DNA from: Oscillospiraceae bacterium
Lineage (GTDB): Bacteria; Bacillota; Clostridia; Oscillospirales; Oscillospiraceae
Assembly (NCBI GenBank): GCA_016282135.1
Contig: JAEEKA010000117.1
Location: 1,611-65,610 of the forward strand
Direction: 5' to 3'
Length of the DNA stretch: 64,000 nucleotides
The notes under the pieces were generated by a model. The model saw only the letters and a list, made by a program, of their open reading frames with translations. It searched no databases and had not been told where the DNA came from. A program made the position numbers and the translations under genes. The stretch's first letter is position 1. Every line of letters starts with the position of its first letter. Shown here in pieces: positions 19,202 through 31,027 of this stretch.

Positions 19202-22200
19202 ATGAAGAACACATCGCTGTTCCGCCGGTTTTGGTCGGTAGTCCTTGTGGTAGCCATGGTCTGCTCTCTCCTGGTCCCCTGGGCCAGCGCTGAGACCGCA
19301 ACCAAGGTAACTGCAAAGACTGCAGAGCTTGAGCTCGTCCCGACCGACGCCGGCGAACTGGAGAGTCATAAGCTCGGCAACGGGCAGACTGACGACTCCA
19401 GCACGAAGGCAGGTTTTGAGCCCACCGACGTGGTCCGTGTTTCTATCGTGCTGGACAAGGCTTCCACTCTGGACGCCGGCTTCAGCGCAAAGAACATCGC
19501 GAACAACGCCGCGGCCAAGACCTACCGTGACGGGCTCCGCGCCGACCAGGTTGCCATGACCGCCAAGATTGAAAAGGCGATCGGCGGCAAGCTGGACGTT
19601 AAGTGGAACCTGACGCTTGCGGTGAACATTATCTCCGCAAATGTCCAGTATGGCCAGATCGAGACCATCAAGGCCCTGGAGGGCGTTGAGGACGTGTTCG
19701 TTGAGAACACCTACGAGGCCCAGAAGGACGAAGAAGGCGAAGAGCCCAACAACGGTTCCGCCTCCTACATGATCGGCTCCAACCTGGTTTGGGCCAACGG
19801 CTATACCGGTGCCGGCAGCAAGATTGCCATCCTCGACACCGGCGCCGACGTCACGCACCAGTCCTTCTCCGGTGAAGGCCTGGAGTACGCTTTCGCGCAG
19901 AATGCTGAAGAAAAGGGCATGAGCTACGACGAGTACGTGGCTTCCCTGAATCTGCTGACCGCTGAGGGCATTGACGCCGTCAAGGATCAGCTGAACGTCA
20001 GCTTCAACACCGCGCAGACCTACCGCAACACCAAGATCCCCTATGCGTTCAACTACTACGCCAAGGGCTACGACGTCGGCCACGATCATGATACCGCGAG
20101 CGAGCACGGTTCCCACGTCTCTGGTATCTCCGCGGCTAACCGCTTCATCAAGGTCGGCGAAGAGTACAAGCCCGCTCTTGAGGCTGTCGGCACCCAGGGC
20201 GTTGCCCCCGATGCGCAGCTGATTATCATGGACGTGTTCAACACCACCGGCACCACTGCTGATTCCGACTACATGGTCGCTATCGAGGACGCCATCATCC
20301 TGGGCTGCGATTCCGCCAACCTGTCTCTGGGCGGCGGCGCTCCCGGCTTCGGCTTCTCCGGCGGCTACGAGCGCGTCATGAACAAGCTGGTTGAGAACGG
20401 CATGGTCGTCGCTTTCTCCGCCGGCAACAGCGGCATGTGGTACGACTCGCCCAAGAACCCCCAGATGCAGTATCCCTACCTGTACGTCGATGACATCAAC
20501 TACGCCACCGACGGCAGCCCCGGATCCTTCACCAACACGCTGGCTGTCGCCTCCGTCGACAATGCCGGTCAGACCGGTATTCCTCTGATCTTCGGCGATC
20601 GTCACGTGTTCTACTCCGAGACCTCCGGCTACGGCAATGAGCCCATTGCCACCATCGCTGGCCAGACCTACGAGTACGTCCTGGTGGACGGCCCCGGCGT
20701 TGACGACAACGATCACGTTGGCGGTGAGGGCGACCAGTTCGCGGCCCTCGGCTCCGAAGTCCTGACCGGCAAAATCGCCATGTGCTACCGCGGCTCTTCC
20801 TCCTTCTTTGCGAAGGCCAACGCCGCCGTGGCCCAGGGCGCTGTCGGTGTTGTGATCATCAACAACACCACCGGTGTCATCAACATGAACCTCACCGGCT
20901 ACAACTACACTGCTCCTGCTGTTTCCATCCTGAAGGCCGACGGCGACGCCATCAAGGCTGACTCCGAGGCTGTCACCGATGCAGAGGGCAATGTTCTGTA
21001 CTACAAGGGCACGATGGGTGTTTCCGACGAGATCGAGGTTCAGATTCCCGAAATCTCCGACACTGTCGAAGTTTCCTCCTTCTCCTCCTACGGCACTCCC
21101 GGCACCATGGTTCTGAAGCCCGAGATTCTGGCTCCCGGCGGCAGCATCTACTCTGTCAACGGCTATCACCAGAAGCCCGCTTCTGAAGGCGGCGGCTTTG
21201 CCGGCGGCCCCGATCAGTACGAGGTTATGTCCGGTACCTCCATGGCGTCTCCCCAGGTCGCCGGTATGGCTGCCCTGATGGGTCAGTACATCCGCGAGAA
21301 CAACCTGGAAGAGAAGACCGGCCTGACTGCCCGTCAGATCACCAACTCCCTGCTGATGTCCACCGCTCATCCCGTGTACGACTCCTACGGCGAATACTGG
21401 TCTGTGTTCCGCGTTGGCGCTGGCCTCGCGAACGTGGGCGACGCTGCCGCTGCCAAGTCCTACATCCTGATGAACGAGGACGCCACCCTGTTCCCCGACT
21501 CCGCCAAGGACGGCAAGGTCAAGGTTGAGCTGGGCGACGATCCCGACTGCACCGGCAAGTACGACTACAGCTTCAAGCTGTATCCTCTGGAAGACTCCAA
21601 GTCCTTCACTCTCCGCACCGACATCTTCACCCAGTGGATCGCCGGCAACGGCGGCTATGGCATGCTGGCTGACACCGGCACGGCTCTGCTGGGCGCGAAG
21701 ACCACTTACGAGATCAACGGCGAGACCTACGAGGATCACTTCGAGGTCGAGGCTGACGTCAACATGGACGGCGAGACCAACGAAGCCGACGCCCAGGCTA
21801 TCCTGGACTACCTGACCGGCGAGCTGGCCGAAGGCGCTGCCTTCGACGAGGCTGTTGCTGACGTGGACGGCGACGAGAAGATCTCCTCCTACGACGCCAA
21901 GCTGATTCTCGACAGCGCTGCTTCCCCCATCATCACCATTACCGAGCCCACCGAGATCAAGGTTCACATTGAGATCGACGAGGCTGACAAGGCATTCATG
22001 CTCAGCTACGCCACCGGCGGCTTCTATGTCGAAGGTTACACCTATGTGGATCCCGTTGCTGACGAAGAGGGCGCTATGGACGTCGTCCATTCCATCCCCA
22101 TCTTCGGCTTCTGCGGCTCCTACACCGGCCCCGCCATGCTGGACCGCACCTCCGCCATTGACGAAGCTTACGGCACCGGCAAGCTGCCCTACATTGCCAA

Positions 22201-31027: not shown

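Follow-up and report, generated by a model that had tools for sequence, protein, structure and literature searches.

A 64-kb stretch of DNA from an uncultured rumen Oscillospiraceae bacterium (assembly GCA_016282135.1, contig JAEEKA010000117.1, positions 1,611 to 65,610; hereafter the window) encodes a protein of ~3,940 amino acids (aa) in which a serine protease of the S8 subtilase family, with an inserted PA domain, lies at the far end of ~20 further modules from a C-terminal anchor of surface layer homology (SLH) repeats. The intervening chain comprises a dockerin, two to three propeller-like or unknown domains, two Ig-like domains, six Cleaved_Adhesin modules, a cohesin-fold module and a β-trefoil. 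We consider it rather likely that the protein is a surface protease of the cell-envelope proteinase (CEP) type that doubles as a peptidase-scaffoldin resembling ScaO and ScaP, its binding modules targeting it to substrates. Rumen protein breakdown wastes dietary nitrogen, and to our knowledge little is known of the enzymes by which uncultured Oscillospiraceae contribute to it. A sizeable, unstudied family of surface proteases (2.5–4 kaa) joins a CEP-type protease to assembly modules of the cellulosome type, and among the members seen this gene is the most elaborate.

Reading frame and protease head

The coding sequence occupies 19196..31027 (+), a run of 3,943 codons (~11.8 kb) with no internal stop before the terminal stop codon at 31025–31027. 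Amino acid numbering is counted from 19196; the ATG at 19202 is the probable true start, favored over the ATG at 19196 because a GGAG at 19190–19193 sits 8 nt upstream and because ACG replaces the first ATG in the orthologue L010. The N terminus looks like a Sec-type signal peptide (19196..19291 (+), aa 1–32; MKNTSLFRRFWSVVLVVAMVCSLLVPWASA|E, with cleavage after WASA), read from the sequence and kept in orthologues. The whole protein is strongly acidic, with a net charge of approximately −425 and a combined Lys and Arg content of 4.4%.

The segment that follows the signal peptide (19292..19807 (+), aa 33–204) has no Pfam match and shares 56–73% identity with close orthologues and 41% with L009; from its position ahead of the S8 domain we infer that it is a propeptide. 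The S8 catalytic domain (19808..21475 (+), aa 205–760; PF00082, E = 1.7e-33) carries the motifs ILDTGAD at 19829, HGSHVSG at 20105 and SGTSMASP at 21230. Aligned motif by motif with the C5a peptidase (7edd) and SpyCEP (5xya), the domain shows the Asp-His-Ser order and oxyanion Asn of the S8 family, with the triad placed at D214, H304 and S682 and the oxyanion residue at N411. This triad is retained in 59 of 59 family members that possess the N terminus, by an alignment-based check. The PA domain (20738..20953 (+), aa 515–586; PF02225, E = 1.6e-11) is inserted between the His and the Ser, in the alignment at the same point as in C5a peptidase and SpyCEP, and the solved structures closest to the catalytic region are 7edd, 5xya and 31mr (E = 1e-20 to 1e-27). 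By these sequence comparisons, the catalytic region is assigned to the CEP or C5a-peptidase type of S8 enzyme.

The fn3_5 domain (PF06280) was not matched in Pfam scans of the window protein, whole and in pieces; one of ten orthologues matches it at E = 8.9e-6, unlocalised within a 490-aa piece, and many family homologues carry it. The NCBIfam model SGO_0316 scored 94 bits against a cutoff of 1,400 bits. The protein has no LPXTG sortase anchor at its C terminus, which consists of the three SLH repeats and ends in ...GNALVE.

Dockerin, cohesin-fold, β-trefoil, and SLH modules

Downstream of the protease head lies a type-I-like dockerin (21752..21904 (+), aa 853–903) that has the two segments with EF-hand-like calcium loops typical of type I dockerins. 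Both loops, DVNMDGETNEAD and DVDGDEKISSYD, are intact and conform to the patterns DxNxDGxxxxxD and DxDxDxxxxxxD. Scanned as a piece, the domain scored 32.4 bits against PF00404 (cutoff 22.9); it was matched in all ten orthologues (best E = 6.2e-10), and a profile search led to the ScaB dockerin 4uyq_B (E = 1.6e-4).

The cohesin-fold module (29612..29989 (+), aa 3473–3598) is positioned between the last adhesin module, CA6, and the SLH repeats. An AlphaFold model of the C-terminal region (aa 3409–3800) has a mean predicted local distance difference test (pLDDT) score of 72, with the cohesin and trefoil domains at 80–93, and the cohesin region is modelled as a nine-strand sandwich (pLDDT 80–91). 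Foldseek matched it to solved cohesins with TM-scores of 0.53–0.62 overall, including 2jh2 and 2vo8 (0.62 each), the OlpA cohesin 3ul4_A and the ScaB cohesin 4ums. In five of eight orthologues the region is recognised by the Pfam Cohesin family PF00963 (best E = 1.4e-6). A single cohesin and a single strongly scoring dockerin are present in every full-length orthologue. In the L002 orthologue, ~275 extra residues (aa ~3348–3624) split the match to the cohesin region.

The β-trefoil module (29990..30454 (+), aa 3599–3753) was modelled with a pLDDT of 85–93 and has no Pfam match. Its Foldseek matches are FGF/FHF folds (TM-score 0.62–0.70), fascin and a Vibrio cytolysin, and judging from the model it is probably a lectin-like binding domain. 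The same module recurs as three tandem copies in P0129, an otherwise unrelated 639-aa lipoprotein-like protein, and has the appearance of a mobile binding domain not described before.

The chain ends with three tandem SLH repeats (30536..31024 (+)), matched as three stretches by PF00395 (E = 4.9e-29) and related to the Sap SLH domain 3pyw in the PDB; SLH repeats are the standard module by which proteins are tethered to wall polymer. L009, an orthologue of 2,351 aa, has no SLH match and instead carries a weak second dockerin at its C terminus (aa ~2305–2349).

A sequence-only reading of the window, made before any search, had described a single uninterrupted frame starting at 19202 with a signal peptide, S8 triad motifs and three C-terminal SLH repeats, and all of these stand: its start is the better one, and its triad motifs lie where it put them and align with the catalytic motifs of C5a peptidase and SpyCEP. 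The Pfam and NCBIfam scan that it proposed as a check matched every family named (PF00082, PF02225, PF07675/NF038128, PF02368 and PF00395). The dockerin and cohesin were missed there, and its emphasis on the adhesin modules is off, as the distribution of the modules across the family illustrates.

Orthologues and the wider family

Homologues were sought with the first 1,000 aa as query in a database apparently without entries longer than ~1,750 aa; full architectures of relatives were taken from contigs and from a representative library. The N-terminal query recovered hundreds of homologues, annotated merely as 'S8 family serine peptidase', from metagenome-assembled genomes (MAGs) of Oscillospiraceae, Erysipelotrichaceae and other Clostridia, with a best identity of 71%. 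A scan of species-representative genomes gave 11 loci, all in rumen Oscillospiraceae or Ruminococcaceae MAGs (sheep, buffalo and RUG/RGIG assemblies); eight are complete collinear genes encoding 2,351–3,988 aa, and the other three reach contig ends. Full or long collinear copies are present at nine further rumen MAG loci. Five loci share flanking genes, with a thiamine transporter, DUF3810 and a metallophosphoesterase upstream and RluD and RNase Y downstream, and are therefore true orthologues. The exact window protein was not found in a collection of 15 billion proteins.

For a census of the family, the region spanning U3 and U4, two segments described below, was searched with HMMER against 1.84 billion representatives at E < 1e-10. 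This gave 82 clusters at 50% identity, all metagenome-derived. Most are 2,000–3,900 aa long, and in these the matched region occupies the same relative place along the protein; those relatives that carry a name are MAGs of rumen or gut Clostridia. The first database yielded six homologues of the U3-U4 region. Profile mapping of 51 long representatives revealed a common scaffold of S8, dockerin, U1, U1c/U2, U3, usually a cohesin, and SLH. Cleaved_Adhesin modules are present in 11 of the 51 (one to five copies each) and absent from the remaining 40. On this mapping, the adhesin modules are optional in the family, and the dockerin and cohesin are the conserved partners of the protease.

The six Cleaved_Adhesin modules and their linkers

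Each of the six adhesin modules was scanned singly against PF07675, which has a gathering score of 21.4 bits. All score above it, at 35.8–85.1 bits, and cover profile positions from 7/14 to 172/174. The NCBIfam choice_anch_J model (NF038128) matches the same protein in six stretches with 336.6 bits (E = 2.6e-101). CA1 (23588..24058 (+), aa 1465–1621; PF07675 E = 7.4e-24) and CA2 (24173..24640 (+), aa 1660–1815; E = 3.6e-22) lie in the first half of the protein, and the remainder form a C-terminal array: CA3 (27224..27688 (+), aa 2677–2831; E = 5e-20), the divergent CA4 (27776..28219 (+), aa 2861–3008; E = 1e-8, 35.8 bits), CA5 (28397..28864 (+), aa 3068–3223; E = 6.3e-22) and CA6 (28919..29371 (+), aa 3242–3392; E = 9.9e-12), which is also divergent. 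The six modules had been located in the sequence-only reading within a few codons of these coordinates. Its motif string serves as a consensus, but CA3 (DGDT), CA4 (EGSN) and CA6 (DGDN) lack the full DGDG, and other motifs vary too. The homology it had claimed to the gingipain adhesin domains is borne out: the modules match gingipain K1, K2 and K3 (4itc, 3km5 and 3m1h) with shared motifs, and CA1 aligns over its full length with Kgp K1 (4itc, E = 3.2e-19).

Segment-versus-segment BLAST comparison gave 80% amino acid and 85.5% nucleotide identity between CA1 and CA2. Identity to CA1 is 72% at the amino acid level for CA5, ~55% for CA3 and 30–40% for CA4 and CA6, and CA4 is 30–40% identical to the other modules. 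In a tree of all orthologue modules, CA1, CA2 and CA5 form one cluster, CA3 and CA6 group with their positional counterparts in L002 and L007, and CA4 groups with an L007 module of different position, a pattern that points to repeated duplication and shuffling. CA2 is best read from these identities as a recent tandem copy of CA1, and CA5 as a CA1-type copy relocated into the C-terminal array. Elsewhere the copy number is 0–5 (1–5 across the orthologues and a relative of 4,077 aa), so that the six in the window are the highest number seen and suggest a lineage-specific expansion via intragenic duplication. The ratio of nonsynonymous to synonymous change (dN/dS) is 0.24–0.35 among CA1, CA2 and CA5 and 0.59 for CA1–CA3, much as in the remainder of the protein; the copies thus seem to be maintained under purifying selection, as far as the rough ratios allow.

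The linkers bear on whether the modules are cleaved apart. In gingipains, which are cargo of the type IX secretion system (T9SS), a C25 cysteine protease cleaves at Arg or Lys between the adhesin domains. Pfam and NCBIfam scans of the whole window protein found neither a C25 domain nor a T9SS sorting domain. Seven of the eight linkers flanking the modules have no Lys or Arg in their Pro/Thr/Glu/Asp-rich stretch, the exception being the linker between CA1 and CA2, and judged by composition the inter-module linkers do not present the Arg/Lys processing sites of gingipains. A make-up rich in Pro, Thr, Glu and Asp and free of Lys and Arg is usual for the uncleaved linkers of clostridial multimodular proteins. 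The linker ahead of CA5 (28244..28375 (+)) is a (Glu-Pro-Thr) repeat encoded by 14.7 copies of the 9-bp tandem repeat GAGCCCACT (95% matches; Tandem Repeats Finder). Its length likely varies among strains, and it could be hard to assemble.

Propeller-like, Ig-like, and unmatched regions

The region between the dockerin and CA1 begins with U1a-U1b (21971..22945 (+), aa 926–1250), of unknown family and with no sequence match in Pfam or the PDB; it shares 62–77% identity with close orthologues and 39–45% with L009. It is followed by U1c (22946..23557 (+), aa 1251–1454), the first part of a probable β-propeller, which has a weak DUF4394 match (E = 1.3e-5). The AlphaFold model of U1c-CA1-CA2-U2 is poor (mean pLDDT 55.5, predicted TM-score 0.34); within it, aa ~1320–1440 (pLDDT 80–92) gave partial β-propeller fold matches with root mean square deviations of 4–6 Å, which lend weak support to the propeller-like stretches noted in the sequence-only reading. 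U2 (24701..25030 (+), aa 1836–1945) is the remainder of the U1c domain beyond CA1-CA2 and resembles U3b (E = 1.4e-6). U1c directly adjoins U2 in L004 and in the distant relatives P0010, P0012–P0020 and P0084, and in L008 the dockerin (aa 1387–1443) has moved to the U1c/U2 junction, where the window protein has CA1-CA2; CA1-CA2 therefore occupies an insertion hot spot. From the orthologue comparison, CA1-CA2 is possibly inserted within one propeller domain formed by U1c and U2.

Two Big_2-like modules had also been described. The first is an Ig-like Big_2 domain (25043..25243 (+), aa 1950–2016; PF02368, E = 8.9e-13). The second (26156..26395 (+), aa 2321–2400) matches HL_N-beta with 25.8 bits, below the cutoff of 27, and is supported by cross-matches of the two Ig-like segments between orthologues. 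Between them lies U3 (25256..26155 (+), aa 2021–2320), of unknown family and 52–72% identical in orthologues; it had no Pfam match in nine orthologues, its WD40 matches in the PDB are non-significant (E ~0.7), and it is possibly a second propeller. U4 (26396..27184 (+), aa 2401–2663), also of unknown family and 39–66% identical in orthologues, gave nothing significant in Pfam or PDB searches. Profile searches of U1, U3 and U4 against the PDB and Pfam returned only the dockerin as a significant match. Together U1a/b, U3, U4 and U5a make up ~1,400 residues that are conserved in orthologues and have no match to a Pfam family or, by sequence, to a solved structure.

Comparison with known systems

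The protein was compared with several characterized or described systems. The gingipains RgpA and Kgp and HagA of Porphyromonas gingivalis share with it the K1–K3-homologous modules and the placement of protease and tandem adhesins in one precursor. They differ in that the gingipains are C25 cysteine proteases that use the T9SS and A-LPS, whereas the window protein is an S8 serine protease with a Sec signal and SLH repeats in a Gram-positive-type envelope, has linkers without Arg/Lys processing sites, and carries modules that are dispensable in most of its family. The CEPs (ScpA/ScpB, SpyCEP and the lactococcal PrtP type) share the S8 domain with the PA insert at the same site, a large multi-domain wall-anchored stalk and, in homologues of the window family, fn3_5. 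In contrast to these LPXTG-anchored enzymes, the window protein is SLH-anchored and two to four times longer, and the CEPs are without its dockerin, cohesin, Cleaved_Adhesin, β-trefoil and propeller-like modules.

Closer in assembly modules are ScaO and ScaP, 'unconventional' scaffoldins composed of a peptidase, a dockerin and a cohesin (PMC6780208, PMC3413522), which occur in Acetivibrio cellulolyticus, Pseudobacteroides cellulosolvens and Clostridium alkalicellulosi, cellulolytic clostridia of the Acetivibrio group (PMC6780208). They carry PPC, Rhs, galactose-oxidase and vWFA modules, and the C. alkalicellulosi module strings are without SLH (PMC6780208). Compared by described layout alone, the window protein differs in its CEP-type head, its SLH repeats, its adhesin, trefoil and propeller modules and its rumen Oscillospiraceae host. 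The OlpA/SdbA type of Clostridium thermocellum likewise has a cohesin N-terminal to the SLH repeats, and its cohesin 3ul4_A is among the fold matches; those proteins are small and non-catalytic, whereas in the window protein a trefoil lies between cohesin and SLH and ~3,400 residues, including the protease, precede them.

A 2008 survey listed the architectures Sub_N-Subt-Cleaved_Adhesin and Subt-PA-DUF1034-(Big_2)2-(SLH)2 (PMC2605481), and cleaved-adhesin or choice-of-anchor-J domains also occur in SpBcA/B/C of Bergeyella cardium, S8 enzymes that have been characterised (PMC11982257). Each of the reported S8 proteins with adhesin or SLH modules has a single such module; they fall in other S8 subfamilies (KP-43) or are anchored differently (T9SS), and they are several-fold smaller. 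None unites SLH, multiple adhesin modules, dockerin and cohesin. Proteases that bear dockerins have been described from the rumen and from Ruminococcus flavefaciens (PMC6487960, PMC5301203). Our literature searches found no characterised protein with the complete architecture and no paper on this family or on the full module combination, in agreement with the sequence-only reading, which knew of no characterised example. Pairwise combinations of the modules are already known and no new mechanism is shown; it is the full set that is undescribed in the literature found. None of the building blocks is new, and what the family offers in addition is ~1,400 conserved residues without a family. In this Gram-positive family, gingipain-type modules have been acquired, duplicated and rearranged, and they also provide a test case for the ligands of such modules outside Porphyromonas.

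Proposed function and alternatives

The Sec-type signal peptide is predicted to export the protein and the SLH repeats to hold it on wall polymer, where the S8-PA head would degrade extracellular protein and supply peptides and amino acids. The jelly-roll and trefoil modules would attach to glycans or proteins presented by feed particles, host material or other cells, a role also proposed for the Ig-like and propeller modules, and such binding would keep the protease and the cell on the substrate. By analogy with ScaO/ScaP and with OlpA-type cohesin-SLH anchors, the dockerin and the wall-proximal cohesin may permit assembly with the protein itself, with its neighbours or with other dockerin proteins. 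The adhesin modules would act as covalently linked binding modules and not as cleaved subunits. Several observations weigh against this model. PF00963 matches the cohesin of the window copy with only 17.8 bits (E = 0.004), below the 24.1-bit cutoff; there is no further dockerin or cohesin gene in the 64-kb window or in the ~20-kb orthologous loci; the propeller assignment depends on the confident fraction of a model with a mean pLDDT of 55.5; dS is probably underestimated under the strong codon bias, which leaves dN/dS rough; and the ~1,400 residues without a family could hold an activity that alters the picture.

The sequence-only reading had taken the protein for a Gram-positive, possibly processed analogue of the gingipain/HagA polyproteins. 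On that model the S8 domain itself, or a different protease, would cut the precursor between the adhesin modules, and the pieces would persist as a non-covalent complex on the S layer. Genuine homology links the adhesin modules to the gingipain K domains, one precursor does contain both a protease and several adhesin modules, the broad specificity of subtilases makes self-cleavage conceivable, and the CA1-CA2 linker contains both Lys and Arg. Against this, the other linkers, including the 14.7-copy Glu-Pro-Thr repeat, are Pro/Thr/Glu/Asp-rich and free of Lys and Arg, as is typical of stable linkers, and the protease is an S8 rather than a C25 enzyme in a protein with neither a C25 domain nor a T9SS C-terminal domain. 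Cleavage would moreover leave only the C-terminal fragment with the SLH anchor. Finally, since 40 of 51 representatives have no adhesin module, the core function of the family is independent of these modules. Processing of this kind is accordingly improbable, and the analogy is not upheld.

It is also unlikely, although less so, that the protein is primarily an anchoring scaffoldin or adhesin, with the cohesin recruiting dockerin-bearing enzymes, the dockerin linking scaffoldins and the S8 domain serving maturation or turnover. The cohesin beside the SLH repeats reproduces the OlpA-type layout, with 3ul4_A among the fold matches; dockerin, cohesin and peptidase together reproduce that of ScaO/ScaP (PMC6780208); a review raises the possibility that cellulosomal peptidases act in post-translational processing (PMC12484212); and dockerin and cohesin are conserved accessory modules of the family. 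However, a single cohesin in a protein of 2.5–4 kaa makes a poor scaffold, the triad is strictly conserved in a head of the nutritional or virulence CEP type, and no genes for carbohydrate-active enzymes or dockerin proteins lie nearby. A still more basic objection, that the long frame is an artefact of mis-assembled repeats or a decaying pseudogene, could draw on the repeated modules and the 9-bp tandem repeat, which could mislead assemblers, and on the failure to find the exact protein in the 15-billion-protein collection. We regard it as extremely improbable: there are no stops in 11.8 kb, dN/dS is below 1, the most similar modules have 85.5% DNA identity and are too divergent for easy collapse or chimera formation, and collinear orthologues of 2,351–3,988 aa with conserved synteny come from independent assemblies.

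The recurrence of one dockerin and one cohesin in every full-length orthologue could point to self-assembly. The dockerin near the head of one molecule might bind the cohesin near the SLH repeats of the next, giving a proteolytic surface lattice or canopy. We hold this head-to-tail arrangement to be doubtful; if true, the self-assembled lattice would be a protein-degrading counterpart of the cellulosome, with the adhesin and trefoil modules tuning adhesion.

Expression signals and codon usage

A promoter-like element (18957..18985 (+)), TTGACC-17 nt-TAGAAT with a TG extension, matches 10 of 12 consensus positions. Both hexamers are kept in six orthologous upstream regions, and L001 has the −10 variant TAAAAT. 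The 5′ untranslated region (UTR) contains a hairpin of 14 bp with a 7-nt loop (19139..19175 (+)) that ends 14 nt upstream of the GGAG and leaves the ribosome-binding site unpaired. RNAalifold over 10 loci showed compensatory changes in 5 of the 14 pairs, a single-sequence fold of the window 5′ UTR yields the identical hairpin, and no Rfam family matched it. In L001 and L008 the hairpin lies near the predicted 5′ end of the transcript, and the window has ~150 nt extra between promoter and hairpin. The structure resembles known mRNA-stabilising leaders and may serve to stabilise the mRNA or as a site for a regulator. A GC-rich hairpin of 11 bp (31061..31086, strand unassigned) lies 34 nt past the stop codon; it is a probable terminator, scored on the minus strand only.

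The GC content at third codon positions is 0.79, similar to that of the neighbour genes. TTA, CTA and TCA codons are absent from the 3,943 codons of the gene, against 9.5 expected (P ~7e-5); across the window they number 2 in 5,384 codons of SLH genes vs 34 in 9,544 codons of non-SLH genes. This avoidance suggests an expression-linked codon bias in the SLH genes. The absence of rare codons, together with the conserved promoter and 5′ hairpin, gives indirect hints of high expression of the protease gene. An antisense ORF (19184..30916 (−), 3,910 codons) results from the lack of TTA, CTA and TCA codons on the sense strand; it was rejected as a gene, lying in exact antisense register and giving a Gly/Val-rich nonsense translation. 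Comparable long antisense ORFs shadow further genes within the window.

Genomic neighbourhood

Six further SLH-anchored proteins are encoded in the window, at 3857–6283 (+), 6479–8233 (+), 8330–9628 (−), 12915–14294 (−), 41950–47454 (+) and 50459–54244 (−), giving the 64-kb region an unusually high density of wall-anchored surface proteins. These neighbours include an InlB-repeat protein, a BspA-type leucine-rich repeat protein, a 1,834-aa triple 5′-nucleotidase/metallophosphatase and a Cthe_2159-type carbohydrate-binding protein. Beside an SLH protein, at 9833–12770 (−), lies a pair encoding a DHHW/AlgX-like SGNH protein and an MBOAT acyltransferase, which is kept in L001; SGNH and MBOAT genes in this layout are typically found where a wall polymer or a secreted polymer is O-acylated. 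A thiamine pyrophosphate (TPP) riboswitch (16042–16153) precedes the thiamine-transporter gene (16204–16767), and a cobalamin riboswitch (48820–49016) lies upstream of small ORFs (49142–50172), one of which has a weak DUF4430 match.

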